This document shows, in pieces, positions 29,925 to 57,261 of a stretch of DNA of 64,000 nucleotides; positions within the stretch are counted from its first letter, which is position 1; each line of letters begins with the position of its first letter. Source of the stretch: Candidatus Daviesbacteria bacterium (GTDB lineage Bacteria > Patescibacteriota > Microgenomatia > Daviesbacterales > UBA10151); assembly GCA_016432425.1 (NCBI GenBank), contig CP066688.1:343398-407397 (forward strand), in the 5' to 3' direction. The notes beneath the pieces were generated by a model that had not been told where the DNA came from, ran no database searches, and saw only the letters and a list, made by a program, of their open reading frames with translations. The translations under genes were made by a program, and so were the position numbers.

Positions 29925-30376
29925 ACTCCTTGATAGCTAATGGTTTTAATATGATAAATAAACTCTTGATCCAGCTTAATTCCATCCTCAGTATGGGTGT
30001 TGGGTAGAATAAATAAAGTCAAACCGCTACCCAATTGTAATGGTTTTTTAAATTTAAACCTAAAAGTCTGGCCATAACTAGTGTTTATGCCATTAAGGAC
30101 TTCCAGATCATATTCTAGAGTCTCCGGGTCAAATTTATGTTTCACCTCTGATTTCATCACAGGCATATTAAAAGTAATTTCAATATCCTGGGTAGGCAAA
30201 ATAATGGCATTATCTAAAGGGTTAGGCTTAGTGGAAACTATTTTTAGTTGCTTTTCCTGGGTAGCTTCTTTTTGTGGGTTCTGTTGTCCAATAGAAAGAC
30301 TATCTTTAAACAGAAAAAAACCCATCAAAAGAAATAATATAGTTAAGGATACTTTATATTTATTTAACAAATTCAT
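29921..30376 (-). CDS. small secreted protein (last gene of T4SS-like operon)
   Basis: Signal peptide KVSLTILFLLMGFFLF; no domain. Confidence 0.35.
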   Translation of the reverse strand: MNLLNKYKVSLTILFLLMGFFLFKDSLSIGQQNPQKEATQEKQLKIVSTKPNPLDNAIILPTQDIEITFNMPVMKSEVKHKFDPETLEYDLEVLNGINTSYGQTFRFKFKKPLQLGSGLTLFILPNTHTEDGIKLDQEFIYHIKTISYQGV

Positions 30377-30380
30377 ATCT

Positions 30381-32408
30381 TTATTTTACTAAAAGTTCCC
30401 GTGCAAATTGTTGATGCAAAGGTTTGCTGCGCTGGTAAGGATTATTGGGAATAGCGGGTTCACAGGCGGCTCCAATTCCCAAGCTTTGCTCTGGAAACTC
30501 TAAGTTTAAAAAATAAGTTATCGTCTCTGCATAATCTTCGCTAAGGTTATTAATTCCTCCAATGCAACTGTTCCCGTTTTGGGAATAACTAGTCAAATAA
30601 CCTTCTTGACTAATTACCGATTGCAACTCGTTTTTCTTAGCAGTTTGTGGGTAGCAGTTTTCTATAATATGGGAAAGTTCATGGATAAAGACCACCTTAA
30701 ATAACCCTTCTGAGTAAGGTTGTTTAGTAGAAGAGCTAACTCCACTCATAGTTAAAGAATTACAAGAAATTTGTTCATTAAATCCGCGATCTAGTCTTCT
30801 AATATTAATAATATTATGGTTGGGATTAACTAAGTTTAAAAATTTAGTGTTAGAGATACCCCACAACTTCTCCCAGGCCCATTTTAAGTAGTTGTAACCA
30901 AAAGCAGTATCCATGTTAATGCCGAAAGCGTTTAAAATGTCGTCATGTAATTTTTGTTGATCAGTACTAGGCGGAGGTGCGTTAACAGAAACAGGCCGAC
31001 AGTTTTGCAGGCTGTTCCATAAATCATCCCCATAGTTATATGGTCCGGCGCATCTAGTAGTACCGCTGGCTGTTTTTTCAGATGTACCATATTCCAAGCA
31101 ACCATAATATCCTTCTGCGACTCTGTTTATGATAGTCTGATCACTGGTCCAGGAAGGATTCCACTCAACAGCACCTAATTTACTTAAGATCAAACCAGCT
31201 GAGAGGATAATACTACCTCTGGGGTCACAAAAATCTGCCTGAGTAAGCTGGTCGACGGTTTTATTTAAAAAACTGGCCCCTTTTTCTACCCCGCTAGCAG
31301 AATAAGCTGCTGCCAGCCCCCAAGGTGGTTGAATTTGCATAATACCTAAAGCCCCGGTCGGGTTAATAGGACACTTCTCAGCTCCCAGAGTTGGCAGATC
31401 AGCATCAGCGACTTTGGTAACAGAAGGAGTTTCCACCCTGGCAATGGCTGCCAAAAGGGTTGATGGTACTGAAGTTAATGTTTCAGCTTCTTGGAAGTAA
31501 CTTAAAAGTAGTGGACTTTGATAACTTTCAGCTTGAGGGTTTCGATCTCCCCGATAAAACTGGCAAGAGTTAATATTGCCAATTCCGCCAGCTTCAGCTT
31601 TCTGATAAGGGGGGATGAAACTGCCGCTTTCTAAGATGTTAAAAATAAGCGGTCCTATAAAAATGACTGCCACCACAATTAAAACTGCCACCACAATGGG
31701 CCAACCTACACTGGCTACGGCTGCTCCTCCGGCCATCACTGCTCCCCTGGCTGCCCCCTGGGTTAACATGCCTCCTGCCCGGCCCGCTCCCCCCAGTCCC
31801 TGGAATAATCCTGACCCCACCCCCCGGACCAGGGAACCAGCACCTCTAAGGGTATTTTCTCCCAGCCGGCGGGTTAAAATTTGCCCATGAGAGGAAAAAT
31901 CTTTAAAACTAGAGGGTATTTCCCATTTGGGTCGGGGAATATTAGGTGGGGAGGGGGTTTGAGGAGGTGGCCCTCCCTCAGTAGGTGTTTTACTAATTTC
32001 CTGCTGGACTCTTTTTAAAGCAGCTTCTTCGACTTTCCCCTCTAGTTTATTAAGCCATTTGTTTAAATTGTCCTCTTTTTGGTCAGGATCACTTAACTTA
32101 TCCTTTAAAGCTGTTTCCAACTCTGTGGCTTGTTGTTCGTTTAAGACTGGGGGGGCAGCCGGGTTAATTAATCTTCTTAAATTTAAATCTACTTTTTTGT
32201 TGGCATACAATTTTTCTACCAGCTCATTATCTTCTTGATAAACCCGATAAGCAGGCAATAAATGGCGGACCAGGCGCAAGATAGGTTTTTTAGCAATAAA
32301 ATATCCTCTAATGACCACAAAATGGCGGTCCGGTTTTTCTTTGAATTGGTCAATGGCCCCTCGAGGCTCAAAAAGCAATCTAAAAATTCTGGCGTCTTGT
32401 TGGGCCAT
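30381..32408 (-). CDS. T4SS-associated cell-wall hydrolase: TM protein with lytic transglycosylase (SLT) domain and C-terminal HExxH metallopeptidase-like domain
   Basis: TM AVMAGGAAVASVGWPIVVAVLIVVAVIFIG; SLT-like AIARVETPS…ALGIMQIQPPWG; FIHELSHIIEN; adjacent to VirB4. Confidence 0.5.
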   Translation of the reverse strand: MAQQDARIFRLLFEPRGAIDQFKEKPDRHFVVIRGYFIAKKPILRLVRHLLPAYRVYQEDNELVEKLYANKKVDLNLRRLINPAAPPVLNEQQATELETALKDKLSDPDQKEDNLNKWLNKLEGKVEEAALKRVQQEISKTPTEGGPPPQTPSPPNIPRPKWEIPSSFKDFSSHGQILTRRLGENTLRGAGSLVRGVGSGLFQGLGGAGRAGGMLTQGAARGAVMAGGAAVASVGWPIVVAVLIVVAVIFIGPLIFNILESGSFIPPYQKAEAGGIGNINSCQFYRGDRNPQAESYQSPLLLSYFQEAETLTSVPSTLLAAIARVETPSVTKVADADLPTLGAEKCPINPTGALGIMQIQPPWGLAAAYSASGVEKGASFLNKTVDQLTQADFCDPRGSIILSAGLILSKLGAVEWNPSWTSDQTIINRVAEGYYGCLEYGTSEKTASGTTRCAGPYNYGDDLWNSLQNCRPVSVNAPPPSTDQQKLHDDILNAFGINMDTAFGYNYLKWAWEKLWGISNTKFLNLVNPNHNIINIRRLDRGFNEQISCNSLTMSGVSSSTKQPYSEGLFKVVFIHELSHIIENCYPQTAKKNELQSVISQEGYLTSYSQNGNSCIGGINNLSEDYAETITYFLNLEFPEQSLGIGAACEPAIPNNPYQRSKPLHQQFARELLVK

Positions 32409-32430: not shown

Positions 32431-34146
32431 TTAACCTTGCTGGCGAGCAAGGATCTCGGCCGGGTTGGAGGTAATTAACTGGTGTTCCTCGGGGGAGGCC
32501 ACTACCCTCATGGCCACATGAGTATTGCCGGCAAAAAAGAGCCCCTGGCCCACTCCGGCAGCCAGCAGCAGACGCTGTTCACCTTCTGATAGATAAAAGA
32601 CTTGGGCCACTTTTTCTATTGAAGCCGGGGCTTGTTTTAGTAGTACCTGGATGGAGGAGTTGGAGATAATTTCTTTGCCCCGGTCAGTCCCCAAAAAATC
32701 TTCCACATCCTGGGTAATGGTGGTCAGCCCCAAATAATATTTGCGGGCCCTTTTGGCCATATCGACCAAGAAATCAGCGCTATCTTGGTTTTGCATTAAA
32801 TACCAGGCCTCATCCACCACCAAAAGGCGTTTTTTGAGTTTAGAGCGCACTTTGGTCCAGATGTACTCCAAAATAATATACATGGCCAAAGGACGCAGTT
32901 GGTCAGGCAGGTCACGCAGGGAAAAGACAGTAAAAGAGTTGCTGATATCAATATTGGAGGGTTGAGAAAAAATACCTGCCAAGGATCCTTTGACAAAGCG
33001 TTCCAGCCGGGCAGAGAGACTGGTGGCAATAGCATCTTCCATACCCATTAAAACTTTGTATAAATCTTCCATTAGAGGGGCGGGGCGGTTTTGGGTTTTG
33101 GGGTCATCAGTAATACCAAAACTGGCATAAGTTTGTTTTAAGCTTCTGTCTAAGATGGCTGCCTCTTGGGGGGAGAGTTGCCCTAAAACCAGTTTTAAAA
33201 AGCCAGTCAAAGACAAAATTTTTCGTCCCAACTCATTTTCTCCTGGATCGCCACTTAAAGATAGGTCAAAAGGGTTGATTTTAACTGCTGAATTAACTGA
33301 AAAGTTTAGATATTCTCCGCCAATAGCTTTGCACAAATTTAAATATTCCTGCTCCGGGTCAATCACCAAAATTTCCGTGCCAAACATTAAAGAACGCAAG
33401 GCTTCCAGCTTAACAAAATACGACTTCCCTGCTCCGGATTTGGCAAAAACTACCGAGTTGGCATTTTCCAAAGAAAAACGGTCGAATAAAATTAATGAAT
33501 CATTGTGTTCGTTAATCCCATACATAATGCCACTGTTGGAAGTTAACTCTGAGGAGGCAAAAGGAAACATGGAAGCCAGTGAAGTAGTGTCCATATTATG
33601 AGTAAAATTAAGCAAATCTTCCCCTAAAGGGAGGCTGGATTTAAAACCTGCCTCCATTTGCAGGGTGGTGGGTCTGGCCGTCATCGACAAAGAGGCCAGA
33701 GTAGATTCTACCAGTTTAGAGGTATTAGCTAACTCTTCTTTATTGTCCGTGGGCAGGGTGACATAAAGGGAATACTGGAAAAACCGCTCGGTGCCCCGCA
33801 CCAATTGATCTTGTAGGGCCCGGGCATCTTCTAAGGCCACTTCCACCGCCGGGTTAACTTGCTGCCCCCGTTCTAAGTCAGTTTGGATGGTGGCTTCCAT
33901 TTCAGCAATTTTCCTTTTTAGATCATTTAAGACTCCACTGGGCTGTTGTGGATAAATAAACATGGATAGATACAGCGAGTGGTCAAAAGAAATGACTGGT
34001 TCCAGCCAATTTAAGTCGACAAATCTGGGGTAAGCAGACACAAAATAGGTGCGATAAAAGGTTTGGTTAATCCGTAAATGGTTAAAATCCACCTCCATTT
34101 CCGCCGGGGCAATCAAATCAACTAAATTTAAATTATGGGGGTTCAT
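32431..34146 (-). CDS. type IV secretion ATPase VirB4/TrbE/PrgJ family (C-terminal ATPase portion)
   Basis: Walker A VVFAKSGAGKSYFVK, Walker B LLVVDEAWYLM, GLTTITQ; overall VirB4-like pattern. Confidence 0.75.
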   Translation of the reverse strand: MNPHNLNLVDLIAPAEMEVDFNHLRINQTFYRTYFVSAYPRFVDLNWLEPVISFDHSLYLSMFIYPQQPSGVLNDLKRKIAEMEATIQTDLERGQQVNPAVEVALEDARALQDQLVRGTERFFQYSLYVTLPTDNKEELANTSKLVESTLASLSMTARPTTLQMEAGFKSSLPLGEDLLNFTHNMDTTSLASMFPFASSELTSNSGIMYGINEHNDSLILFDRFSLENANSVVFAKSGAGKSYFVKLEALRSLMFGTEILVIDPEQEYLNLCKAIGGEYLNFSVNSAVKINPFDLSLSGDPGENELGRKILSLTGFLKLVLGQLSPQEAAILDRSLKQTYASFGITDDPKTQNRPAPLMEDLYKVLMGMEDAIATSLSARLERFVKGSLAGIFSQPSNIDISNSFTVFSLRDLPDQLRPLAMYIILEYIWTKVRSKLKKRLLVVDEAWYLMQNQDSADFLVDMAKRARKYYLGLTTITQDVEDFLGTDRGKEIISNSSIQVLLKQAPASIEKVAQVFYLSEGEQRLLLAAGVGQGLFFAGNTHVAMRVVASPEEHQLITSNPAEILARQQG

Positions 34147-34889
34147 ATATTATCTCCTAACTCTTCTACGACAAAAGGATGGGTTTTGGCCCGGGCCAAA
34201 TTGGGAAAAAAATTGCTGGTCGGAGTAATTGGAATGGGAGTTGGCTTTGGCTGGGTGGGAAAGGGAGTAGCAGCTACTTGGGGAGCTGCTAATTTAACAG
34301 GGGGAACCTGCACCGGAGTAACTATTTTAGTACTAATAGTTTGGTTATAGATATTAAAAAATAATTTGACCAGCTGGGCATTTTTCAACTGCTCTGCCTT
34401 GATGCCGGCCCGGGAGAGCTGGCGGATAATTTGATCGCGCCGGGGTAAAATAATGGCCTTAATTTTAGGCAACTGAGATAGGGAGTTAGGTTTTAAAGAC
34501 AGCCCCAGTTCCAGCGAGGAAACATTGATGGCAATATAGAAATTTTTATCCAACACTTCGTTTTCTTTGATGGTTTGTTGAATAAAATTGCGGTAGCGGG
34601 TCATCATAGCAGAAAGCAGAGGATTGTTTTGTAGTTTTTGGGCGCTATCCAATAAAGTTAAATATGAGCTAATATCTAACTTGATTGACTGGATAATAAT
34701 TTGGATGGGAAAAGATAAAGAGTTGAGCAGTTGGGCAAAGCTGTCGACAATGGCCAGTTGTTCTTTTTGGGAAAGCAGCCCAAAATTGACTGCCCCCACT
34801 TTTAATACTAAGGTGGCACCGCCGTCTTTTAAAAGTAGTAAGTCGCTGTTGATATCTTGAACTGTTAAGCTATTTTGAGTTTTGGTCAT
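34143..34889 (-). CDS. hypothetical protein, possibly detached N-terminal domain of VirB4 (ATGA overlap with downstream ATPase), Pro/Thr-rich tail
   Basis: 248 aa + 571 aa roughly equals typical VirB4 length; 4-nt overlap; no motif of its own. Confidence 0.3.
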   Translation of the reverse strand: MTKTQNSLTVQDINSDLLLLKDGGATLVLKVGAVNFGLLSQKEQLAIVDSFAQLLNSLSFPIQIIIQSIKLDISSYLTLLDSAQKLQNNPLLSAMMTRYRNFIQQTIKENEVLDKNFYIAINVSSLELGLSLKPNSLSQLPKIKAIILPRRDQIIRQLSRAGIKAEQLKNAQLVKLFFNIYNQTISTKIVTPVQVPPVKLAAPQVAATPFPTQPKPTPIPITPTSNFFPNLARAKTHPFVVEELGDNI

Positions 34890-35743
34890 ATTAATTTTTT
34901 AGCTGATACCGTTAAAGGTGATAAGGTCGTACCTTTTAAATTAATCTGAATTTTGTCAAAGGATAAACTCTCTTTTTCCAACTCAATCAGATAAGTACCA
35001 TTGGGTAGGGGGGTGGAACCGGAAAACTGGCCCAATTTGTTAGTTTTTAAGGCTCGAACAGGCAGCCCTGTTTTGTCGTAAATAATCACTACCACTCCTT
35101 CTAAATAATTGCCGGCTGCATCGGTAATAATGCCATTGATCACATTTGGTATGGTGGTCAGCACTAACTGGCCGGGTTTGATTTTACTAGCCGGGACCAC
35201 TTTAATAGGTTCATTTTTAACCATTGGTGGAAGATCCACTGGAGTTGGAGTAGGAGTGGGGGTAACTGGTGGAGTCGGGGTCACAACTGGCGCAGCAGTA
35301 GGAGTGGGCTGAGCAGGGATGATAGTAGCAGTTTGGGTGGGAGGGGTGATTTTGGCAATCACCGGTGGAGTAGCTGTTTCTAGGCTGGCCACCACTTGAG
35401 AAATAATGGACCCGCGCTGGCTAAAAAGGGCCGTTTGCTCCCAGGAATGGTCATTTTTGGACCATACCCACTGAGTAGGAGAATAAACTGCTTTTAAGAA
35501 AGCTTTCACCCAATAATCCAGCGGGCGGTCGGCAATGGGCATAAAAGCCAGCGCGACCCCCACCAGAGCAAAAAAGGTAATCAGCGGCCAGGCTAAAAAT
35601 CCCAGAATAGGAAGCAAAAAGACAAAGATTAAATAAGCTGTTCCCATTCCGAAAGATAAGTATAAAAACTGTTTTAAAGTCATGTCCCCCACTAATCTAA
35701 ATTCAAAAGCAGTGACGTTTTGTGGGATAGGATGGGCTTCCAT
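34886..35743 (-). CDS. VirB3/PrgI-like 2-TM protein fused to Pro/Thr linker and CnaB/carboxypeptidase-regulatory-like beta domain
   Basis: N-terminal YLSFGMGTAYLIFVFLLPILGFLAWPLITFFALVGVALAF; linker TPTPPVTPTPTPTPV; C-terminal GIITDAAGNYLEGVVVIIYDKTGLPV…GTYLIEL. Confidence 0.4.
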   Translation of the reverse strand: MEAHPIPQNVTAFEFRLVGDMTLKQFLYLSFGMGTAYLIFVFLLPILGFLAWPLITFFALVGVALAFMPIADRPLDYWVKAFLKAVYSPTQWVWSKNDHSWEQTALFSQRGSIISQVVASLETATPPVIAKITPPTQTATIIPAQPTPTAAPVVTPTPPVTPTPTPTPVDLPPMVKNEPIKVVPASKIKPGQLVLTTIPNVINGIITDAAGNYLEGVVVIIYDKTGLPVRALKTNKLGQFSGSTPLPNGTYLIELEKESLSFDKIQINLKGTTLSPLTVSAKKLI

Positions 35744-35919
35744 TTAAGAAGGATCATATAGTGTGAAAAAAATGTATGCAAGGGTTTAAAAGTGGATCAT
35801 TTTGGAGCAAACCTATATGAATTTCCTCCTTGCCAATACTAAATATTGAGTGTACATTAAAGGCGTGGTGTATCGTCCTGAGTACTTAAGGGAAATCGAA
35901 GTATCGAAGGGGAAGATAC

Positions 35920-36058
35920 AAAAAAGGGAATGGGGTGCCTCGCCTCGCTGAGCGGGCGAAGCGGGAAATCCCCAACTGTGCCGCAACGGTGATTCTGAAA
36001 AGATAAGTCCGGAGACCGACCACTCCGCCAGCTGGCGGATCAATCCCGAGCCAGGAAA
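35920..36058 (-). ncRNA. candidate structured GC-rich RNA with terminator-like 3' end (unclassified)
   Basis: GC-rich island in AT-rich DNA; perfect palindrome ccgccagctggcgg; nested hairpins cgcc-tcgctgagcg-ggcg enclosed by gggg…cccc followed on minus strand by UUUUUU (forward A-run 35920-35925). Confidence 0.3.
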
Positions 36059-36961
36059 ATGATTACTCAAGAACAAGAATGTATACAATTTATCGCTAAT
36101 TGGAGGAAAGCATCTCCCCAAAATCGTCCTCAAATAGTCCAAGAAATCGCTTCGTGGCATCGGGAAAGTAATCGCCAAATTGCCAAAGGAATAGATTTTT
36201 ATTGGTACGAGGTGGATGAGGAAGGTGATTTTGTCTCCCCAACCAATGGTGAAAAAATCACCGCCAGTATTAATCAAGAGTGCGGTTTGGGACAGATAGA
36301 AACTGGGGTAGTAAAGGAGTTGCAAAGACAAAAAAAATTAGGCGAGGAGCTTTTTATCTGGATTAGTCCGCCATACCCAAATACCTATGTTGATTTAAAA
36401 TTGACTATTACCAATCGGGTAGTTGATAAAGGGAGGGAGTGTTTTGCCAATAGGGCCATCCTTTTTGACTGTGATGAAACGCAAAGCTTGCAGTTGGCTC
36501 GAAAGGTTGCTGAAATCAGTAAAAACCGGCCACTTTTGTCCTCACTGGAGGAAATTAGACGAACTCCGCTAGTGTTAGATCGCAGTTTAGATTGGATAGA
36601 AGTTTTAACCAAAATAACTGGTGATAGTAAGTTGGGAGAAATTATTAACAGTGGAGAAGACCAACAAGCTAAAACTGAAGCAGTGAAGCAGGCTAGTCAG
36701 TTTTATGATGATTTATTGGGGGAGCCAACAATAGAATTGAAGGTAGAAAATATAAATTTTGCCCGCGATTATGGCTTGGGGGATAGTTTAAGCTCTTGTC
36801 CGGTGATTATGGGTGGTTTAACAGCCCCAGAAAACTCTTTTTCTTGCCCCAAATGTCACAGACCAATTCCTTATGGTAGAGGAATGACAGTTTGCCCTAA
36901 TAAAGACTCTTTTGGTAATAGATGTGGAGCTAAAAAAGAAGACTACGGAAATTGTAATTAA
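36059..36961 (+). CDS. hypothetical protein with C-terminal Cys-rich zinc-ribbon-like tail
   Basis: …SCPVIMGG…CPKCHRPIPYGRGMTVCPNKDSFGNRCGAKKEDYGNCN; no other motif. Confidence 0.35.
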   Translation: MITQEQECIQFIANWRKASPQNRPQIVQEIASWHRESNRQIAKGIDFYWYEVDEEGDFVSPTNGEKITASINQECGLGQIETGVVKELQRQKKLGEELFIWISPPYPNTYVDLKLTITNRVVDKGRECFANRAILFDCDETQSLQLARKVAEISKNRPLLSSLEEIRRTPLVLDRSLDWIEVLTKITGDSKLGEIINSGEDQQAKTEAVKQASQFYDDLLGEPTIELKVENINFARDYGLGDSLSSCPVIMGGLTAPENSFSCPKCHRPIPYGRGMTVCPNKDSFGNRCGAKKEDYGNCN

Positions 36962-36997
36962 TTTGATTTTAAATTTTTAGAGGTTTAAACTTAACTT

Positions 36998-38839
36998 ATG
37001 AGCGAAACTGATCCTTTGATAGAGCAGGAGTTGGGTTCAACAGTGATGGTAGCTGAGAAACCAGAGACACTTAAATCTCAACCTCTTAACCCTTATTCCA
37101 AGCAGCATATTTTTCCAGAAGAATATGCAGAAGAATATGCAAAAGATCATTTTTTGCCTCCTCCTGAGACAAAAGAGAATCATCAATTTGACTTTACAGA
37201 AATGGTGAGAAAGCTAATAACTCAAAAGACTTATCCTATTAGAGGAATTTCTCCTGACTTTAATCCCGCAAAAGCGAGCTTTTATAAAATTGAGCGTCAT
37301 GGTAGTGGCGGATTGGGAGCTAATCTGGTTAATGATCAAGGGGAGACAGTGGCGGTGATGCCTTTTTGGACTGAGGAATACAGTGACCAAGAAAAATACA
37401 TCATTAAACCAGATGGTCCTTATGATGTTCATTATGATCAAAGTGGCCGAGAAGTGATGCGGCTTCTGCGCCAAGAGGGAGGGGCAGGAGTAGTACCTGA
37501 TCCAGAGCCAGCAGATGTGGTGAGCTCAGATGCCGCGAGGGCCTGGTTAGAAAGACAGCTGAGATCTTATGAAGGGTTAGGGAGTGAAATAGATATGTCG
37601 ATAGTGAGCAGTTTGCTGTCTACTATTTCCGGAAGAATTCCTGATGCTTTGGGGGTGAAGAGGGAGTTATTAATCAGAACCCGGGCTCGTATTTTTTATC
37701 ATAATGCTGCTATTAGAGCCAGATTCAGATTAGGGGACTTAATGGAGGTATTTGGACAATTGCAGCTGCCAGAACACCAAGAGATTTTGGGTACCCCCGG
37801 CGTTAGGGAATCGATAGTAGCTTTAATAAACAATGATGGTGAGTTTTTTAGATTAGGTGGTGCAGCAGCTGATGCAGAGAGGACTAATATTAAAAACAAT
37901 CTTCAGGTTGGATTGGGTCTGGCTCCAGATAGAGCAATTTTAGCTTTGGAACTCGCCGAGAAATTTGCCCAAATGACTGGTGAAGCCAGTTACTATGATG
38001 GTATCAGGGATTTAACTGGTAATTGGCAACATTTTGAGGTCGGGGCAACCGGAGAAACAGACTATCAGGCTTATGCTGATTATTTAGCCGAGCATTGGGA
38101 CGATATTGACCAGGCTAATTCCTTACAAGGGCAAGGTTCAGCTAACATGCGAAGGGCCTTTTTTTATCCAGTTTTTTTACAAAAACCTGCTACTGATAAT
38201 AGGGGTCGGGCTGAATATTTAAGGAGATATGCTTATTTGTGGGTAAATTCAGCCGTACATTTTCGCAATCCTGCTTTCAATGCAGAAATGAATTTGTTAG
38301 ATTTCGCCGATCATATTGACAGTCAGTGGATAAAATGGATTGTTTGGGCCGGGAAAGTCTCTAAAGCTCATGGTAATGCCGGCCAATTAAATGAAAAAGG
38401 AGCAGAAAGTATTTTAAATGTACCCTTAATCGAGCCTAATAACTTAAAACAAGACACAAGTGAACAAACTATCAATGGAGTGATGGATAACTACAAAAAG
38501 GCTATTGCCGTTTTTGGCCACCTTAATTATCCTGAAGAAGTTCAGCGGTCCATGACCCATCTATTAAGAGGGGTGATGGAATATGTATCCGAAAGACATA
38601 TTAATCAAGCCCGGGCAGAAGGTTTTATTACTTGGTTGGGTATCAATCAAGATCAAGTTTTTAGTGTCTTAAGATGGGCTGCTAAAATTGGTGCCGTTAC
38701 TTATGTCCAAGCAGAAGGTTTGCGCCATCAACTAGATTTGACTTTATTTAGAGTGGCGGCTGAGGCTGCGGCGCCACATTTGGGCCAAGGTATCTGGGCT
38801 GGAATCAGGGGGTTTTGGGGCGCCATTACTGGTAAATAA
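36998..38839 (+). CDS. hypothetical soluble protein (613 aa)
   Basis: Long ORF, no TM, no recognised domain. Confidence 0.35.
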   Translation: MSETDPLIEQELGSTVMVAEKPETLKSQPLNPYSKQHIFPEEYAEEYAKDHFLPPPETKENHQFDFTEMVRKLITQKTYPIRGISPDFNPAKASFYKIERHGSGGLGANLVNDQGETVAVMPFWTEEYSDQEKYIIKPDGPYDVHYDQSGREVMRLLRQEGGAGVVPDPEPADVVSSDAARAWLERQLRSYEGLGSEIDMSIVSSLLSTISGRIPDALGVKRELLIRTRARIFYHNAAIRARFRLGDLMEVFGQLQLPEHQEILGTPGVRESIVALINNDGEFFRLGGAAADAERTNIKNNLQVGLGLAPDRAILALELAEKFAQMTGEASYYDGIRDLTGNWQHFEVGATGETDYQAYADYLAEHWDDIDQANSLQGQGSANMRRAFFYPVFLQKPATDNRGRAEYLRRYAYLWVNSAVHFRNPAFNAEMNLLDFADHIDSQWIKWIVWAGKVSKAHGNAGQLNEKGAESILNVPLIEPNNLKQDTSEQTINGVMDNYKKAIAVFGHLNYPEEVQRSMTHLLRGVMEYVSERHINQARAEGFITWLGINQDQVFSVLRWAAKIGAVTYVQAEGLRHQLDLTLFRVAAEAAAPHLGQGIWAGIRGFWGAITGK

Positions 38840-38845
38840 GTTAGC

Positions 38846-40522
38846 TTATCGGCGTGGCGGTTGAGATAATTGGCCCAGTCTATTTGTAAAGGAAGTTAAC
38901 CAGCGCGGCGCTCCAGGAGCGGTTGCTCTTTCTTCTAATAATCTAGATCCCGCTGCAGCTGCTCCTCTGCCAAAACTAGGTGCTGCTGCTGTCACCACAG
39001 TTTGCCCCCGGCCCAATCCTGCCATGGCCTCTTGGGGAATACCGGCAATATCTTTAACCCCAAAAGCGTTTTTGACCATATCAGGGATGGCTGGAGTGCC
39101 TAAAATTAAGCCGTAGGCAATAATTAATCTCAACAACTCGATACTTAAACCGCCAAAAAGTGGGGGTGAGGCTACCCAAGACTTTGAGTCAGTTTGCAAG
39201 ATCATACCGGCAAACAAAAAAGCGGCAAAAACAGCCGGGAAAACTAAAGCATTAGCTAAAATTGTTTTCCACCATAAATTTAAAGAGCCTCCCTTGCCGG
39301 GAATAGAGGAATATAAAATAATAAATGGTGAGAGGATAGTGGAAACCAGCAGGGCAATGTAGGCCCCGATTAATTTCCACAGCAACCTAAAAAATTGGAT
39401 CAATAAAGCAATCACTAAAATTAAAGGGACAATCAATCCCACAATGCCGGTGAAGGCTGCTCCCGCTCCTGCTCCCAGGGCAGTGCCTGCTCCCAAACCC
39501 AGAAGTGTACCTGCTCCCGGAAAAACAATAGTGCCCACAATGGTTCCGATAATGGCCGGCAACCCAATGGCTAAAGCTGCTCCTCCCCTTTCACCGCCTA
39601 CAGTTGAAGATAGGGTCCCAAAAAGCCCTTTAGTGACATCATGGATATTTTCCGGAATCCTAAAAGTTGACACAAACATATTGAAAACATTGGAACTATT
39701 GGCTAAATCCTGAACCTGTAAAACATTAGGGGTGGCCAAAAAAATCTGGGCTACTGCTTGGACCCCGACAAAAGAAGTGTCAATTAACAGAGCAGAGAAA
39801 AAATAACTAAAGGTCACTAAAACTATACCTATGACCAGTCCAGGCAAGGCAGCCTGGGCGGAAATAACAGTTTGAGGATTAATTTTAGAGCGGAACATGA
39901 TCATAAAACCAATGGCAATAAAAACAAAAGTAAAAATAAAATAGGCCAAGTTTCTGCTAATTAGCCAAAGTTGCCTAACTGGTTCAATAATGCCCGCTCC
40001 TGACCCGCCCACCTGGGCATAGGCAGGTTTGGCTAAAAAATTATTTCCTACAGAGGCTAAGTATTGGACAGTAGAAGTAGGTGGGTTGGTATACATGGCC
40101 ACAAAAATATTAGTCACTCCTGCTAAAGCCCCCCCACTTTGGCCAGGACTGTAAAGGACAATTTTGCGCTCTTTGCCAAGGGTAATTCCCAAACATTCGT
40201 CCACCGGGCTCATCCCGGCCAGTTCACAAAACATGCTGTGTTCTAAATTTAAAATAGTGTAATTAGAATGTTGGGGAGCCTTATAATTTTCCTGGGTAAC
40301 TGATTTAGGTGTAGGCTTAGGAGAAGGGGAAGGAGAGGTTTGGATACCAGTATTATCTCCTGGAGCTTGAACGGATTTGGAGGTATTAACTGGATCATTA
40401 GTGATTTCAGCCTGGACATTAGTAGCCAGTAGTAAACAGTAAACAGTAAACAGTAAAAATAAAATTATGGCTTTACTGACAACTGACAACTGACGGCTGA
40501 AAGCTGAAATTAGGGCAGACAT
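38846..40522 (-). CDS. VirB6/TrbL-like polytopic membrane protein with signal peptide and Pro/Ser-rich N-terminal region
   Basis: Multiple Gly/Ala-rich TM helices (…GAGTLLGLGAGTALGAGAGAAFTGIVGLIVPLILVIALLIQFF…); located in T4SS cluster. Confidence 0.5.
   Translation of the reverse strand: MSALISAFSRQLSVVSKAIILFLLFTVYCLLLATNVQAEITNDPVNTSKSVQAPGDNTGIQTSPSPSPKPTPKSVTQENYKAPQHSNYTILNLEHSMFCELAGMSPVDECLGITLGKERKIVLYSPGQSGGALAGVTNIFVAMYTNPPTSTVQYLASVGNNFLAKPAYAQVGGSGAGIIEPVRQLWLISRNLAYFIFTFVFIAIGFMIMFRSKINPQTVISAQAALPGLVIGIVLVTFSYFFSALLIDTSFVGVQAVAQIFLATPNVLQVQDLANSSNVFNMFVSTFRIPENIHDVTKGLFGTLSSTVGGERGGAALAIGLPAIIGTIVGTIVFPGAGTLLGLGAGTALGAGAGAAFTGIVGLIVPLILVIALLIQFFRLLWKLIGAYIALLVSTILSPFIILYSSIPGKGGSLNLWWKTILANALVFPAVFAAFLFAGMILQTDSKSWVASPPLFGGLSIELLRLIIAYGLILGTPAIPDMVKNAFGVKDIAGIPQEAMAGLGRGQTVVTAAAPSFGRGAAAAGSRLLEERATAPGAPRWLTSFTNRLGQLSQPPRR
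40431..40508. repeat. two heptanucleotide repeat tracts inside 5' coding region of VirB6-like gene
   Basis: agtaaac x3 plus agtaaaa (40431-40458); tactgac/aactgac/aactgac/ggctgaa/agctgaa (40474-40508). Confidence 0.7.
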
Positions 40523-40569: not shown

Positions 40570-41142
40570 TCACTGTTCAGTAACTGGTTTAACTCCCTCC
40601 GGGAAATTAGCCTGCTGGTAGGTTTCCTCATAATCTTTAACCTTTTCGACTCCTGGAAGAGTTGGCAAATCTGTGCCATAAACCCCAGTGGGTCCCCTTA
40701 AAAAGCTCTTTAGTTGTTCTATGGGGGTACCTTGTAACTTGACATCTGGAGGGGTTTGAGTTTGCTGAATAGTTTCTGATTGGACAAAAAACTTTTCTAT
40801 ATTAAGGGTTTGCCCGGCTTTACTTACTAATTCTGAGAAAAAATTACCTATTCCACTCAAAATCTGGCTTACTAAATCCTGATTAGGTAATTTATCTTTA
40901 ACTGCCTCCGGGGCCAATAAATTCTGGTTCAAATTATAAACAGCCTGTTCCTCAGAATTTATGGTAATAGCCTGAATAGGAGTAGCCAGTAGTAAGTAGC
41001 CAACAGTAAACAGTAAAAATATAATTGTTATCTTATTAACAATTAATTTAGGGGCAGACATAGTTTTAAAATTTACAGGTTCCGTTATAAACACTACTTT
41101 TAAGTGAAGCAATATTTCCCCCACCAACTCTGGCTGGTCCAC
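40570..41142 (-). CDS. small secreted/membrane protein with N-terminus paralogous to VirB6-like protein
   Basis: ITIIFLLFTVGYLLLATPIQAI vs IILFLLFTVYCLLLATNVQAEI; underlying DNA also heptamer-periodic (agtagcc agtagta agtagcc aacagta aacagta). Confidence 0.35.
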   Translation of the reverse strand: MDQPELVGEILLHLKVVFITEPVNFKTMSAPKLIVNKITIIFLLFTVGYLLLATPIQAITINSEEQAVYNLNQNLLAPEAVKDKLPNQDLVSQILSGIGNFFSELVSKAGQTLNIEKFFVQSETIQQTQTPPDVKLQGTPIEQLKSFLRGPTGVYGTDLPTLPGVEKVKDYEETYQQANFPEGVKPVTEQ

Positions 41143-42997
41143 GGGTACTAAAAGTATATTTACTTCCTGGCGGCATCTTTCTATTTACAAGAAGATTATC
41201 ATAAGGATTTTTCAGTTCTCCATAACGACCAATAGCATAACCTACTACTTTACCTCGGTTATCATATCCCACCTGGATAATTACAGCTCCTCTGTAGAAG
41301 GTATCAAGTGTTAAATCTCCTTTATTAATGACCACCCCACTTCCCACCATGAATCTTTGATCAGGAGCAAGATTTAATGATGAAGATTCAAATTCCACCA
41401 TACCGTAATCTCTGGGATAAGTAGAGACTGGATTGGTGGGTTGCTCTGAAAGTTCGACACTAGCACGGTCTATATTACCGGCGGCTAAAGAGGCTGTCAT
41501 AATATTATGAGGTCCAGCATCAAAAGTGGCGCCTACATAATCCTTATTAGGATTCATACAATAGAAGCTTATTTCAGTTGTTTTTGCCACTGGAGAATTA
41601 TTTCTGGTCAGAAATTGAGGAGTAAAACTTAAATATTGTCTCCAAAAATTAGGCATAGTTAATTCCCACACTGCATGGATACGGTTTTCTCGGCAGTTAC
41701 GTTCAGTAGGATTATTAATACAATCCCATGAAGGTCCTTCAAAAATCTGTACGTCTTTAAATACTACTTTAGTAGAGGTAATCACACCTGTAGGTTTTTC
41801 TAAAGTAGGGGTAATTGGTGTATAAGTAGGTGAATATATTTGGTTCAACGGTCTTTGTCGTAGATAATCTTGAACTGCCCAATTACCATCACTTAACTGC
41901 CACCATAAATAACCATCAGTATAAACCGGACCTCCGGTAACAAAAACTGAGCTACCCTCTTTTTCGCAGCGTTGCACTCTACTGTTGGTGGAAGGTTGTT
42001 CCCTAATATTTAAACAGCTGCCGGTCCCGGAAATGACGGCTTGATCTTTAAGAGTAAAAGCAGGGGTGGGAGTAGGTTGAGGAATTTCGGTAGGGGTAGG
42101 GATGACGGTAGGAACAACTAATGGGGAAATATCTGGGGGTGGGTTTTTGGTTAAATAAACCGGGTTAAAATCAATATAATTAATGGTACCCTCACAATCC
42201 TTAGAGTTTCTACTTTCCTCCCTGCACCAACTGGTATTAGCTACCCTAGGTTCTTCTCCTGATTTAGCGAGGATACCATTGCGGTCACCGGGTAAACTTT
42301 TGTGTGCCCAGCCGGCAATGGGTTGGGATTCATCAAAAGGAACTGGTTGGTCACCTTTGTACAAGGCTACATCTACATGAGGGCCGCTATTAAAATGGTC
42401 GGGGCTATGTTCACAAGAAGTAAAACCCAATTCGCTGGTGTAGGCGACTTTGTCTCCTGGTTGTACTTTGATTTCACCCAAATGTTCATATTCGCTGCTG
42501 TAACCATTAGGATGGTCAATTCTGACCATACTGTGCCGTGGGTCGTTGGGATTATTTTCCTTCCCCACCCAAGCTACTACTCCCGGGGCCATTGGCCTGA
42601 TAGGTATAGTGCGGATGATTAATGTTTTTTCTGGCTCACATAAGCCGGCAGCCACGGAAAAGTCTAAATGCCCGCTATGGGCCCCACCGCCTCCGCCGGT
42701 AAAATAACCCCGGCCCCAAAAAGGGAACTGCCAGCCCAAGTTTTGTGCCCCTTGGTCTGGCTGACTGACTATTGGTGAGCTGTCTAATGGCTGATCAGGT
42801 GAAGAAGGTGTGGTCCCACAACCGACAAGAGCCAAACCAGCCAGTGGTAATAGTAAATTTAAATTGGAGTTTGAGGGGTGGTTAGAATCTAAAAAATAAT
42901 TAACGCGAAGTTCGTCTGCCAGAGATGGTCCAATTACTCCTTTACCCCAATCTCTGGAGCCATCATCCAAATAAGTGTAGCCTAATTCTTTACTCAT
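41066..42997 (-). CDS. lipoprotein with M23/LytM-like peptidase domain (HxH degenerated to HVD) plus additional beta-rich domains
   Basis: Lipobox LALVGCG; GAHSGHLDFSVAAG; RIDHPNGYSSEYEHLGEIKVQPGDKV; GPHVDVALYK in place of GPHLHFE. Confidence 0.45.
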   Translation of the reverse strand: MSKELGYTYLDDGSRDWGKGVIGPSLADELRVNYFLDSNHPSNSNLNLLLPLAGLALVGCGTTPSSPDQPLDSSPIVSQPDQGAQNLGWQFPFWGRGYFTGGGGGAHSGHLDFSVAAGLCEPEKTLIIRTIPIRPMAPGVVAWVGKENNPNDPRHSMVRIDHPNGYSSEYEHLGEIKVQPGDKVAYTSELGFTSCEHSPDHFNSGPHVDVALYKGDQPVPFDESQPIAGWAHKSLPGDRNGILAKSGEEPRVANTSWCREESRNSKDCEGTINYIDFNPVYLTKNPPPDISPLVVPTVIPTPTEIPQPTPTPAFTLKDQAVISGTGSCLNIREQPSTNSRVQRCEKEGSSVFVTGGPVYTDGYLWWQLSDGNWAVQDYLRQRPLNQIYSPTYTPITPTLEKPTGVITSTKVVFKDVQIFEGPSWDCINNPTERNCRENRIHAVWELTMPNFWRQYLSFTPQFLTRNNSPVAKTTEISFYCMNPNKDYVGATFDAGPHNIMTASLAAGNIDRASVELSEQPTNPVSTYPRDYGMVEFESSSLNLAPDQRFMVGSGVVINKGDLTLDTFYRGAVIIQVGYDNRGKVVGYAIGRYGELKNPYDNLLVNRKMPPGSKYTFSTRGPARVGGGNIASLKSSVYNGTCKF

Positions 42998-43009
42998 TGT
43001 TTATTTAAA

Positions 43010-43342
43010 TTAAGGACACCAATTAGTTCCGCCAACATTACACAAAGTTTTAATGTCAAAAGTTTTTAAGCCTTCTAAGCCGGTAAAGGCCGCAACCAGC
43101 TGCAATACCAGCCAGGCAATGACCAAAAACAGTATTCCTAAAAGGGCCCAGGTGACTGTCATGGAGGCTGACTGGATGGCTTTGGCATCTCCCCCGGAAG
43201 TTAAGTACCTAATTCCTGCCCACACTAATACCATCACCAAAGCTACAAAAGCCGCGGCTACTGACAAATTAATGATTCTGCCAAAAAGCGCTTCCAGTTG
43301 GGTCAGGCCGGCTGCATCGCTGACTACATTGGCGGGGGTCAT
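43010..43342 (-). CDS. T4SS pilin-like protein (VirB2/TrbC-like, 2 TM), paralog 1
   Basis: Two hydrophobic helices flanking SGGDAKAIQSASMTVTWA motif. Confidence 0.5.
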   Translation of the reverse strand: MTPANVVSDAAGLTQLEALFGRIINLSVAAAFVALVMVLVWAGIRYLTSGGDAKAIQSASMTVTWALLGILFLVIAWLVLQLVAAFTGLEGLKTFDIKTLCNVGGTNWCP

Positions 43343-43379
43343 AATTTAAAATTATCACTCGGATAAGCCCAGGTCAAGC

Positions 43380-43805
43380 TCAGCGTGATAAAGAGGGGGT
43401 GGGGTTTTGTGGTGAAGGAATAGTGAATTCTCTTAACAGATCAACTCCTAAGAATCCTCCGGCCAGTTGGACTATGGCAAAAGCTACTGCCAAAATGGCC
43501 AGCCCCACTAGGGCATGGATAATTCTACCTCTGGCATTGCCAATGGCATCTTTATTACCCCCGGATAAAATCCACTCCACTGCCCCCCAGACTAACATCA
43601 CTAAGGCAATAATTAAAGCAATAATAAAAATTAGCCTAATTCCGGCATTTAAAAAATCAGAGATATTAGCAAAACCTACGTCAGGTTTTTTGATTTGGAT
43701 GGTGGTATCTGCGGCCCACACTCCCACCGGATTTAAAAGTGCTGTTGCGGAGGCGGTTAAGATAGATAGTTTTTTCATTTCTAATTTAATAGTATGCAAC
43801 CCCAA
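43380..43805 (-). CDS. T4SS pilin-like protein, paralog 2 (signal peptide + 2 TM)
   Basis: MKKLSILTASATALL signal; WILSGGNKDAIGNARGRIIHA motif. Confidence 0.5.
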   Translation of the reverse strand: MGLHTIKLEMKKLSILTASATALLNPVGVWAADTTIQIKKPDVGFANISDFLNAGIRLIFIIALIIALVMLVWGAVEWILSGGNKDAIGNARGRIIHALVGLAILAVAFAIVQLAGGFLGVDLLREFTIPSPQNPTPSLSR

Positions 43806-43813
43806 TTAGTTTG

Positions 43814-44149
43814 TCAAGTTTTAAAGAAAGTAAATCCGGTAAAGATTCCCACTAGGTTTAAAATAGCAAAAGTAATACCCAAAAGAATAATGCCGATAAT
43901 AGCATGAGTAATTCTACCTCTGGCATTGCCAATGGCGTCTTTATTGCCGCCTGACATAATCCACTCAAAAGCTCCCCATACCAGCATAAAAACAAAAATA
44001 ACAGCTGCGATTTCATAAATTAAAATTATCAAGTTGCTTAAAAATAAGCTAATTCCGCCGGCTCCGGTCGGGTCTTTTTCTACAAAAGGCTGCAAGGGAA
44101 GAGGGGGAGTAATTTTACCAAAGACATCTTCTACGGCTGCCAGTTTCAT
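43814..44149 (-). CDS. T4SS pilin-like protein, paralog 3
   Basis: WIMSGGNKDAIGNARGRITHA; ~85% nt identity to paralog 2 across motif region. Confidence 0.5.
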   Translation of the reverse strand: MKLAAVEDVFGKITPPLPLQPFVEKDPTGAGGISLFLSNLIILIYEIAAVIFVFMLVWGAFEWIMSGGNKDAIGNARGRITHAIIGIILLGITFAILNLVGIFTGFTFFKT

Positions 44150-44469
44150 TGGCCTCCTTTAATAATTTGGAAATTGGGAATATCAAATAAAGCAGACAAA
44201 ACAAACTGTAAAATTAAAAAGGCCATCATTAAGATTATAAACCCAATCATAGCATGGGTCATCATCCCCCGGCCGGAATTCAATGCTTCTTTGTCTGATC
44301 CGGCAGTTAAAAACTTAAAAGCCCCAAAGATAAAATAAAATACTACCAGCCCTGCCGCAATGGAAAAGGTGGGAGCGACTAACCGGTCAACGCCTTGGCC
44401 CAGCGAGGAAATTTCTCCAAAAGCAAACTCATCTTTTAATTTCACTTCAGCAATTAAATTATTTATCAT
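44146..44469 (-). CDS. T4SS pilin-like protein, paralog 4
   Basis: FLTAGSDKEALNSGRGMMTHA flanked by two TM helices. Confidence 0.5.
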   Translation of the reverse strand: MINNLIAEVKLKDEFAFGEISSLGQGVDRLVAPTFSIAAGLVVFYFIFGAFKFLTAGSDKEALNSGRGMMTHAMIGFIILMMAFLILQFVLSALFDIPNFQIIKGGQ

Positions 44470-44789
44470 ATTGGTATGACTACTTTGCTATTTGGTTGCA
44501 AAATTTCCTTGGCAAATTGGGCGACAGCGAAGGCCAGGGCAATCATAATCAAACCAACGATGGCCCAAATAATTCTGGATCTGGCTTGAGCCAATTTTTG
44601 CTTATCCCCACCGGCCGCAATGTATTGAAAAGCAGCCCAGACAATCCAAAAAAAAGCTAAAAAAGCCGCCAAATAAAAGGTCATGTTCAACAGCCCGGAG
44701 ATAACATCTCCCAAATTATTAAATTTGCCTGGACCGGTTCCCCCAACCGGAGATGTGTCCCAAATTTTTGGTAAATCCTTAAATTCCAT
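44466..44789 (-). CDS. T4SS pilin-like protein, paralog 5
   Basis: YIAAGGDKQKLAQARSRIIWA flanked by two TM helices. Confidence 0.5.
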   Translation of the reverse strand: MEFKDLPKIWDTSPVGGTGPGKFNNLGDVISGLLNMTFYLAAFLAFFWIVWAAFQYIAAGGDKQKLAQARSRIIWAIVGLIMIALAFAVAQFAKEILQPNSKVVIPI

Positions 44790-44791
44790 AA

Positions 44792-45913
44792 TTATACTTC
44801 AGGTAGTATTCCTAGTATATCAACTCCGATAATTTGCATAAAGAGGACGGAAAAGACGACAAATAAAATACCAATAATAGCACTGGCAAAACGGTCATGG
44901 CCGGCTTTTAACCTTTCCGGGCTGCCGGCAGAGGTGATCATCTCCAGTACCCCAATTAACATCAGCAAAAAGGCAACCCCGCCCCCAATACCCAGGCTAA
45001 AACGGAAAAGATCTGTAATTAAAGCTAAAGGTTTAGTGTGGACACAACCAATGGCGGTAGCTACACCCTCTCCACTGTCACAAGCAATGCCGGATGAAGA
45101 AGTACAACCAGGAGTGCCGGGAGTACAAGGAGGGGGAATGGAAGAAGAAAAAGTATGACCCTTCTTATCAGTGGTTATTACTAAATTGGCGGTAGTAAAA
45201 ATATTTTTATTGTCTGGAGTTAAGATTTGAGCTTGGATATTGTATGATCCAGCCGCTAAATCAGCTACTCGATTGGAGATGTTAATACTAGAAGTACCTG
45301 AATTATCAGTTGAGCCTTGTCCAATTGGTCTCCCTTCTAAATTAGTAATCTTCAATTGAATAAAAGCTTTTTCTATCGGACTCCCATCGTTTTTTTTCAA
45401 AGTAGTATTTGCTGTAAAATTTTCTCCTGCTTTACCGCTAGAAGGGTTAATCGATAAAGTTGATTGATAATCAGATTGGGCTGGCTGAACAGTAAATTTG
45501 ATGGTATGACTGGTTTTTTGTAGTTTCCAACTACAAAAAGCTCTATTACCTAAGACGTCAATATTGCATGACTCTTTGTATACTCTGGCAAAGACTTCAT
45601 AGTTACCAGTTGTTTGGGGATCTATTCCATAACTACCCTCAGGATTCCTTGCTAAAAGAGAATCATAACTGCGGCTATCTGTATAACATTGGCTATCGGC
45701 TCTAGAGCCAGTAAATATTAAATCAGCGGCATCCTTTTTAAAATAAATAACTAAACATGTCCCAACATCAATTCCGTCATAAGAAATAAGCAAGTTATCT
45801 TGGGCAGTAGGAGAAGCAGGAGAGAGAGTTATAGAAAGAGAGGCTGAATAAATCTCCAATGGTATTAAGAGAGATATTAAAAGAATACTTAAAAAAGTAA
45901 CTATTTTGGGCAT
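44792..45913 (-). CDS. secreted Ser/Thr-rich protein with C-terminal pilin-like 2-TM domain (candidate tip/adhesin pilin)
   Basis: Signal peptide; ~280-aa extracellular region; C-terminal MITSAGSPERLKAGHDRFASAIIG between two TM helices. Confidence 0.45.
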   Translation of the reverse strand: MPKIVTFLSILLISLLIPLEIYSASLSITLSPASPTAQDNLLISYDGIDVGTCLVIYFKKDAADLIFTGSRADSQCYTDSRSYDSLLARNPEGSYGIDPQTTGNYEVFARVYKESCNIDVLGNRAFCSWKLQKTSHTIKFTVQPAQSDYQSTLSINPSSGKAGENFTANTTLKKNDGSPIEKAFIQLKITNLEGRPIGQGSTDNSGTSSINISNRVADLAAGSYNIQAQILTPDNKNIFTTANLVITTDKKGHTFSSSIPPPCTPGTPGCTSSSGIACDSGEGVATAIGCVHTKPLALITDLFRFSLGIGGGVAFLLMLIGVLEMITSAGSPERLKAGHDRFASAIIGILFVVFSVLFMQIIGVDILGILPEV

Positions 45914-56586: not shown

Positions 56587-56677
56587 GGAGGAGGGACCGG
56601 ACGGTAAGGTAGCGGTTTGCTAAACCGTACACGAGCTTAAAACCCGTGAGTGGGTTCGACTCCCACCTCCTCCGCCA
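56587..56677 (+). tRNA. tRNA-Ser (anticodon GCU), CCA encoded
   Basis: Manual fold: acceptor GGAGGAG/CTCCTCC, anticodon stem GCGGT/ACCGT loop TTGCTAA, long variable arm, T-arm GTGGG-TTCGACT-CCCAC. Confidence 0.8.
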
Positions 56678-56678
56678 G

Positions 56679-56765: not shown

Positions 56766-56791
56766 CAAAGTGTTGTATAATAAACATAGCT

Positions 56792-57187: not shown

Positions 57188-57261
57188 TAGGTTCCAACAT
57201 AGTCAACCAGGCGCCGCCACTTTACACTTGCCTCAGAAAACTTTAAACTATAACCACTACT

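Follow-up and report, generated by a model that had tools for sequence, protein, structure and literature searches.

Much of bacterial diversity belongs to the Patescibacteria, or candidate phyla radiation (CPR), whose members are attached to host cells. To our knowledge, neither the cargo nor the control of their type IV secretion systems (T4SS) is known. In the one CPR class tested, T4SS genes are essential for epibiotic growth (as summarised in PMC12102498), and the MPF-FATA-like T4SS of the Patescibacteria has been surveyed (Quinonero-Coronel et al. 2025, PMC12102498). We have analysed a stretch of 64,000 nucleotides (64 kb, hereafter the window) from the genome of Candidatus Daviesbacteria (Microgenomates group, Patescibacteria), which holds a T4SS locus of this type and, within it, two adjacent genes, A and B, preceded by a cobalamin riboswitch. 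With the surveyed systems the window shares VirB4 together with a separate TrsD-like protein, PrgI/VirB3, an array of VirB2-like pilins, a peptidoglycan hydrolase and proximity to dnaA/dnaN. Another shared trait is that no relaxase or type IV coupling protein is recognisable by Pfam among the scanned open reading frames (ORFs) of the cluster. In that survey genes without a profile match were left unannotated, and A, B and the riboswitch are not described there.

Cobalamin riboswitches (RF00174 and RF01689, clan CL00101) are known from regulons with genes such as btuB and metE. The window resembles these in its above-threshold aptamer, its B12 box, its position in a 5′ leader and the presence of an expression platform close to the Shine-Dalgarno sequence (SD), or of a terminator; it differs in that the genes under its control, A and probably also B, are not of any described B12 family, and in that the aptamer lies inside a CPR T4SS locus. 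PPE proteins are substrates of type VII secretion. In M. tuberculosis a B12 riboswitch precedes ppe2, a gene called "of uncertain function" (PMC11260477). This is the nearest precedent, the regulated gene being, like A, no obvious B12 enzyme or transporter.

The cobalamin riboswitch and the family of A

The A–B region is best explained as a riboswitch-controlled two-gene operon that occupies a fixed, fast-evolving slot between two conserved operons of a Microgenomates-type (monoderm, MPF-FATA-like) T4SS locus. Both ORFs are present exactly as described in an earlier note on this DNA: gene A at 36059–36961 (+) encodes an acidic, soluble protein of 300 aa, and gene B at 36998–38839 (+) an acidic, soluble protein of 613 aa. 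That note had also spoken of a T4SS operon promoter region, which corresponds to the spacer between prgI and A. This spacer holds a cobalamin riboswitch on the strand of A, which had been overlooked; the suggestion of a regulatory role came nearer the truth than expected, with the difference that the regulator found is this unseen RNA.

An Rfam covariance-model scan of the window places the aptamer (RF00174) at 35879–36038 (+), where it scores 40.6 bits (gathering score 31.5) at an E-value of 8.4e-7 over the 64 kb. The alignment spans the full model (positions 1–189), the B12 box AAGUCCGGAGACC is located at 36005–36017, and the aptamer ends 20 nt before the AUG of A, in the 5′ leader on the same strand. 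Besides it, the Rfam matches in the window are tmRNA and tRNAs. Directly before the AUG, at 36044–36058 (+), lies a putative expression platform, in which a conserved UCCCGAGCC element is followed by the SD AGGA (36053–36056). The element, UCCCGAGC(N0-2)AGGAAAAUG, recurs in the loci L004, L006, L008, L014 and L016, with variants elsewhere, so that most loci have it next to the SD and the start codon, and we infer that it acts as a regulatory helix. In the leaders of L011 and L013 an intrinsic terminator, consisting of a GC-rich stem and a run of U ahead of the gene, stands in place of the platform. A consensus scan gives a pattern match to a promoter, TTGCCA-17-TACATT at 35830–35858 (+), placed to start a riboswitch–A–B transcript; promoter-like sites are no more numerous in this region than expected by chance, and the position of this one, about 20 nt before the aptamer, agrees with the proposed transcript. 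A TTG-initiated ORF of 172 aa at 35813–36331 (−), which overlaps the riboswitch and the start of A, is almost certainly no gene.

Taken alone, the leader has an unremarkable minimum-free-energy fold (z −0.99); the evidence for structure consists of the covariance model and of covariation. In an alignment of ten compact aptamers the GCCGCAAC core is invariant or nearly so. One hairpin shows compensatory changes in 4 of its 5 pairs (double changes in 4–6 of the 10 sequences) and no broken pair; the remaining helices are not resolved in so small an alignment.

Across the roughly 290 kb of locus and window sequence scanned for cobalamin aptamers (RF00174 or RF01689, several of the AdoCbl-II matches being barely above threshold), an aptamer of the clan at gathering score stands directly 5′ of an A-family gene in nine distinct loci besides the window (L001, L004/5, L006/7, L008/9, L011, L013, L014, L016/17 and L023). 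The aptamer before the A-family gene of L018 scores 36.4 against a gathering score of 36.5 bits, and L010 and L019 have a match below threshold in the same spot; L020 is truncated, and L022 alone has an A-type gene without a detectable aptamer. No cobalamin aptamer was found where B has no upstream A. Every match precedes an A-family gene, with one exception in L004, where a second aptamer stands before a DUF4430 + DUF6580 gene pair immediately upstream of the riboswitch–A unit (L004/L005).

The aptamer accompanies A within T4SS loci and away from them alike. Homologs of A in four other lineages (P0029, P0024, P0032 and P0037) are divergently oriented from a tpiA-rpiB-pgk-gap-tkt cluster, and no T4SS gene lies within 10 kb of any of them. 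Therefore A can be assigned with high confidence to a B12 regulon of the Patescibacteria, and it is not specific to the T4SS; its constant companion is the cobalamin riboswitch rather than the secretion system. We also considered A as a glycolysis-linked enzyme and rejected this, since A is divergently oriented with a riboswitch of its own and the window has no tpiA-pgk-gap genes; we read the arrangement as a conserved chromosomal position. Immediately 3′ of the A genes outside T4SS loci we noted a group I intron (L004, 10979–11165) or a tRNA gene (L006, 11208–11279), and beyond these a large serine recombinase and mobile-element genes (a restriction–modification system, a methylase and a helix-turn-helix (HTH) protein), which looks like a tRNA-associated integration hot spot.

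N-terminal helices, a PAS-like α/β core and a helical bundle are predicted for protein A, in addition to the zinc ribbon at its C-terminus. Its family comprises 9 clusters by word-indexed search and 33 by profile search, all named ones from Patescibacteria, and the copy in the window is 100% identical to HYW45_01910. Among 33 sequences the invariant positions are Trp-101, Ser-103 and Pro-104 at the end of a "WISPP" strand, Arg-167, Cys-247 and the cysteines of the ribbon. The earlier note's zinc-ribbon-like reading of the tail (CPKC...CPNK...C...C) is borne out: Cys-263, Cys-266, Cys-279 and Cys-289 are invariant or nearly so over the 33 homologs, and the predicted model has short β-strands at 260–271. 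Against PDB sequences the A profile finds zinc ribbons alone, with weak matches (Rpo12, E 0.026; eL43; L32; rubrerythrin), and the Pfam families Zn_Ribbon_1, Prok-RING_1 and DUF7129 match 7 of the 33 members at E-values of about 2e-4 or weaker, the A of the window itself being unmatched. We take the tail to be a true zinc ribbon. The structural neighbours of the PAS-like core are weak, many of them having a PAS-type pocket that binds tetrapyrroles. The protein has a net charge of −8, with a locally basic ribbon segment.

Searches of A and B against Pfam, NCBIfam, PHROGs and PADLOC gave nothing or noise-level matches, PDB sequences searched with the single proteins gave no match, and the classical B12-binding families (Rossmann-type domain, CblC, PduO/CobA/EutT, BtuF) were without a match in Pfam, NCBIfam and PDB sequences. 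The absence of a recognisable domain, which had been noted for B, thus extends to A, and the remote homology searches proposed earlier led to no housekeeping or other curated family for either protein. Neither has a transmembrane (TM) segment or a signal peptide, in agreement with the earlier description of B as soluble. No match to Pfam, TM-segment or ATPase/P-loop models identifies A or B as a T4SS core component (VirB1, 3, 4, 6, 8 or VirD4), and no solved T4SS component is a significant structural match to either.

Protein B and its slot in the T4SS locus

Relatives of B were found at 13 distinct places (the window, L002, L003, L010, L011/12, L013, L014/15, L018, L019, L020, L021, L022 and L023), including a divergent member of 871 aa in L014/15 (HMM E 5e-18). 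All 13 are T4SS loci, and therefore B is exclusive to such loci. In each of the 12 loci in which the contig continues, a homolog of the VirB6-like protein (37–56% identity, 6–9 TM segments) converges on B, the distance between the stop codons ranging from a 4-bp overlap to 14 bp, and genes for VirB2-like pilins come next. On the other side, where the contig extends, prgI-trsD-virB4 lies upstream in divergent orientation. The slot is kept even by relatives of B with 21–25% identity or detected by profile alone. In the window, A and prgI are divergent with a spacer of 315 bp, and B and the VirB6-like gene are convergent with 6 bp between their stop codons.

A role as substrate, effector or regulator of the secretion apparatus had been proposed from position, with co-occurrence as the way to check it. 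For B this is supported, a substrate or accessory role being well grounded by a gene that occurs only in T4SS loci (13/13) and tail-to-tail with the VirB6-like gene. For A the support is partial: its superfamily occupies the same slot in most T4SS loci, but the homologs in four lineages without a nearby T4SS gene, as judged within 10 kb, point towards the refuting condition named in the note.

The gene found between prgI and B encodes, in most loci, a protein of 255–477 aa that BLAST does not link to A. Each of these position-A proteins has a strand ending in "SP", a later cysteine of the "SCG/SCP" type and a terminal Cys-rich ribbon. An alignment of eight of them matches the A profile with a probability of 98.0% in hhalign (E 2.9e-13, 267 columns), with these three features in register. 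Therefore a gene of the A superfamily precedes B in 10 distinct loci, in the same orientation, with spacers of 18–112 bp and no predicted terminator; in the window, too, no terminator is predicted between A and B. Judging from the leaders, the riboswitch must control B as well in at least some loci, because in L011 and L013 the terminator lies upstream of both genes. In T4SS loci of the Microgenomates kind, A, B and the riboswitch prove to be a module with a fixed position.

The components of the locus differ widely in their identity to those of the window: 67–76% for VirB4, 45–57% for TrsD, 37–56% for the VirB6-like protein and 42–70% for the pilins, compared with 25–38% for B and an identity that is usually undetectable by BLAST for the position-A gene. 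In L022, for instance, VirB4 is 76%, SpoIID 58%, the VirB6-like protein 53% and B 25% identical. Thus the A–B slot is a fast-evolving, insertion-prone part of an otherwise conserved locus.

The layout of B comprises a disordered N-terminus of about 165 aa, an all-α core of about 440 aa and a basic/aromatic, amphipathic C-terminal tail. An exhaustive HMMER search of 1.84 billion proteins yielded 51 family representatives at 50% identity, 26 of them below 1e-30. No Pfam domain occurs among 27 members, and the B profile finds nothing among PDB sequences; the core is predicted with confidence to adopt a fold without a solved structural relative. Among residues of a catalytic type, only Glu-192, Arg-231 and Trp-450 are invariant in the 27 sequences. 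A conserved "DPxTGE" hairpin and "AGVxPDPExAD" motif stand amid low-confidence sequence in the N-terminal region (residues ~140–175) and are possibly linear interaction motifs. Two ideas about relatives were dropped: an "ES.LN.P" motif had suggested a lytic transglycosylase, for which there was no lysozyme-like fold match, and the 1269-aa protein of L001 is not a long homolog of B (HMM E above 0.007).

The last 18 or so residues of B form a Gly-preceded amphipathic helix with alternating aromatic/aliphatic (Trp/Phe) and Lys/Arg residues, conserved throughout the family. The tail is net positive in 21/27 members, though the whole proteins are strongly acidic; it holds about 3.3 aromatic residues, and its hydrophobic moment lies at the 98th percentile of the protein (median). 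MinD and FtsA carry amphipathic membrane-targeting sequences, and the tail of B is similar to these in its preceding glycine, its aromatic/aliphatic and Lys/Arg residues and its high hydrophobic moment. The tail may thus bind membranes, but it could likewise serve as a secretion signal or act in the host cell; a conserved, net-positive amphipathic tail suits a secretion signal and a membrane anchor alike, and no signal has been defined for monoderm or CPR systems.

The slot and its neighbours have collected other genes. AbiEii-type toxin genes have been inserted repeatedly (L002, 2–394; L003, 223–882; L019, 3132–3788), in L019 accompanied by a DUF3800-III RNA at 3816–3914 (−) with 56 bits. In L001, positions 1350–6453 encode a DUF4143/AAA_14 ATPase and the 1269-aa protein, which ends in an aromatic/basic tail similar to that of B (KTFKRWFFEKAAL). 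Small genes of the 23S_rRNA_IVP/bAvd type (L002, 7315–7677; L022, 17300–17707; L016, 6436–6798) lie inside the VirB2-like pilin arrays of two loci; the family is known for accessory proteins of diversity-generating retroelements, and its presence might hint at targeted diversification of the pilins.

Proposed function of the A–B region

Could the use of the secretion machinery depend on the supply of cobalamin? The placement of the A–B pair behind a B12 riboswitch in a T4SS locus suggests such a link. We tentatively favour the reading that the A–B region is a module gated by B12 that serves the T4SS as an accessory or a client, and rank an accessory role slightly above that of an effector. When cobalamin is plentiful, the aptamer would fold and A would be shut off, in the window through the conserved UCCCGAGC/SD platform, and in L011 and L013 through the intrinsic terminator, which would silence the downstream B too; when cobalamin is scarce, A and B would be produced. 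A would most likely be cytoplasmic and would handle a corrinoid or a metal, or report B12 status, a role that we propose because of its PAS-like pocket domain, its invariant cysteine and its zinc ribbon. B would most likely be a dedicated client of the T4SS, docking by its C-terminal amphipathic helix at the cytoplasmic face of the membrane beside VirB4/TrsD/VirB6, while its disordered N-terminus would recruit partners. Together, the two proteins would couple B12 limitation to the activity or use of a host-contact secretion apparatus.

Several observations weigh against this reading. In the window the platform looks translational, so that the riboswitch may or may not affect B, and L022 has an A-type gene but no detected aptamer. 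A contains no classical B12-binding domain (no Pfam match), and corrinoid binding by it is only predicted. The two genes are separable: AbiEii or other genes lie between A and B, or in place of one of them, in L002, L003, L019 and L022, and in L001 A is followed by the DUF4143 ATPase and by the unrelated 1269-aa protein in the position of B. A and B diverge much faster than VirB4 and the VirB6-like protein, which speaks no less for a protein that is secreted or faces the host than for a docking factor. Finally, the comparative data come wholly from metagenome assemblies, with several contigs from related samples.

The strongest rival, possible though doubtful in our view, makes B a translocated "core effector" that is delivered to the host bacterium under B12 scarcity, with A as its cytoplasmic chaperone or adaptor and the tail of B as a secretion signal or a membrane helix acting in the host. 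In secretion systems an adaptor is commonly encoded immediately before its client. Translocation would fit the faster evolution of A and B than of machinery and pilins, the long disordered N-terminus of B and its positively charged C-terminus on an acidic protein. It would also fit a variable slot that accepts insertions (AbiEii, the DUF4143 ATPase), and the similar tail on the unrelated protein of L001; because B lacks a signal peptide, its export would require the T4SS. However, it is unusual for an effector to be single-copy, to keep one fixed position in 13/13 loci and to align from end to end even at 21% identity. In B no toxin or enzyme domain is recognisable, and invariant residues of a catalytic type are few (Glu-192, Arg-231, Trp-450). 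Its tail is a strongly amphipathic helix, unlike an unstructured Arg-rich signal, and A stands alone behind the same riboswitch in lineages without a nearby B, so that it is no dedicated chaperone. Universal single-copy presence, full-length alignability and the MinD/FtsA-like tail favour a protein that stays in the cell.

It is also conceivable, but unlikely, that A and B are not coupled at all. In that case A would be an ordinary member of the B12 regulon, for example corrinoid-processing or B12-sparing, B a lineage-specific T4SS component with its own expression, and their adjacency inherited gene order in compact genomes. Such independence would agree with the riboswitch–A units away from the T4SS in four lineages, one of them beside the riboswitch-controlled DUF4430 + DUF6580 pair, with the occurrence of B without A or riboswitch in L002, L003 and L021, with the genes lying between A and B in L019 and L022, and with a window platform that appears to act on the ribosome-binding site of A alone. 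It is harder to reconcile with an A-type gene that keeps its position and orientation upstream of B in 10 distinct loci while the identity of B falls to ~21%, across short spacers without a predicted terminator, or with the terminator of L011 and L013, which lies upstream of both genes and necessarily regulates B.

A bolder extension of the B12-gated module appears improbable to us. Here the Microgenomates T4SS would be part of a B12 acquisition or starvation response, in which low cobalamin leads to the production of A, a corrinoid binder with the invariant cysteine as cobalt ligand, and of B, a protein of new fold that would either open the T4SS or give it a new target, or else be injected into the host and free corrinoids there. 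If this were true, a secretion system needed for the growth of epibionts would partly serve to obtain a cofactor that they cannot make. The least supported reading, that A is a riboswitch-controlled transcription factor whose ribbon binds DNA and whose PAS-like domain senses a ligand, switching prgI-trsD-virB4 and other targets at low B12, is in line with the divergence of A from an operon in both contexts (prgI; the tpiA-pgk-gap cluster), with its locally basic ribbon and with a sensor plus zinc-ribbon architecture that recalls NrdR, but is very improbable given the overall acidity of A (net charge −8), the lack of an HTH or other known DNA-binding domain in Pfam and NCBIfam, a prgI–A spacer with only short repeats at chance level and no convincing operator-like palindrome, and the extremely fast divergence of position-A proteins next to conserved promoter-side genes.

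Gene neighbourhood and comparison with known systems

The embedding of A and B in the T4SS cluster, as claimed earlier, is confirmed by the genes on both sides. Upstream lies the operon prgI-trsD-virB4 (32431–35743, −; Pfam PrgI, TraC_F_IV, P-loop_TraG and AAA_10), with the VirB3-like prgI at 34886–35743 (−), the trsD-like gene, whose name is taken from PMC12102498, at 34143–34889 (−) and virB4 at 32431–34146 (−). On the other side, the VirB6-like gene at 38846–40522 (−) encodes a membrane protein of 558 aa with about 9 TM segments and no Pfam match; the label is based on topology and position, and VirB6 is hard to detect in Microgenomatia (PMC12102498). The rest of this operon (40570–45913, −) encodes a 190-aa membrane protein, a 643-aa M23 peptidase (Pfam Peptidase_M23) and six T4SS_pilin proteins (PF18895), and its gene order is also found in L010, L014 and L022. 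The six tandem VirB2-like paralogs (43010–45913, −), of which the first (373 aa) has Ig-like domains ahead of the pilin module, agree with the Microgenomatia pilin arrays described in PMC12102498. The claim that A and B use more CG-containing codons than their neighbours did not hold: they contain 4.7 and 3.3 such codons per 100, compared with 3.0–5.9 in the flanking T4SS genes, and their CpG observed/expected ratios are 0.63 and 0.54, the mean of the window being 0.56.

Just beyond the cluster, which is complete and of monoderm type, lie dnaA and dnaN, and the surroundings also include yidC, smpB/tmRNA, rpoD and dnaG. Therefore the cluster is chromosomal and origin-proximal, as described for Patescibacteria (PMC12102498). 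We rejected mobile-element cargo in view of these housekeeping flanks together with the search for relatives of B on viral contigs, which found none.

Several other ORFs in the window are without a family match. Downstream of virB4, at 29921–32408 (−), there are two, of 675 aa (one TM segment) and 151 aa; the latter is kept next to dnaN in L022 with 42% identity, and in other loci the position downstream of virB4 is taken by large non-homologous proteins. Large ORFs of 815, 440 and 595 aa, without Pfam match, are located at 7763–10210 (−), 11270–12592 (−) and 48536–50323 (+). The last is conserved downstream of SpoIID and a 181-aa membrane protein in L010 and L022, and may belong to an extended T4SS/cell-wall neighbourhood. 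Further on, smpB (50330–50770) is directly followed by the tmRNA gene (50816–51181; tag peptide GNNNVRYAYA), and six Ser/Arg tRNA genes are clustered at 56590–60141.

A ligand-defined RNA switch inside a T4SS locus provides an experimental handle, in that the B12 supply can be varied while the locus is monitored, and A and B are nominated as a link between cofactor status and host interaction. Apart from the T4SS, family A is a new candidate in the B12 physiology of organisms unable to synthesise the cofactor. Family B, of considerable size, has a confidently predicted fold and no solved relative.

Among secretion adaptors, DotM, the zinc-binding DotN and IcmS/IcmW of Legionella and CagZ of H. 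pylori resemble A and B in architecture only: neither in sequence nor, to a significant degree, in fold are A and B similar to the Dot/Icm adaptors or CagZ, and the cluster contains no recognisable coupling protein of the VirD4 type. In transcobalamins that bind B12, DUF4430 forms the C-terminal domain (PMC4350170). The DUF4430 + DUF6580 pair of L004/L005, with its own riboswitch, adjoins a riboswitch–A unit and by association places A in B12 physiology; A and B are not homologous to this pair, which is absent from the window. The words "riboswitch", "cobalamin" and "B12" do not occur in the text of PMC12102498, nor does zinc, and among the papers listed by our literature searches none combines Patescibacteria with a cobalamin riboswitch. 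The ppe2 case may be regarded, by analogy, as a parallel in which a B12 riboswitch meets a secretion system. Taken by itself, the RNA is an unremarkable representative of a known class of riboswitches, and T4SS of this type have been surveyed before; what is new is their combination and the two protein families.

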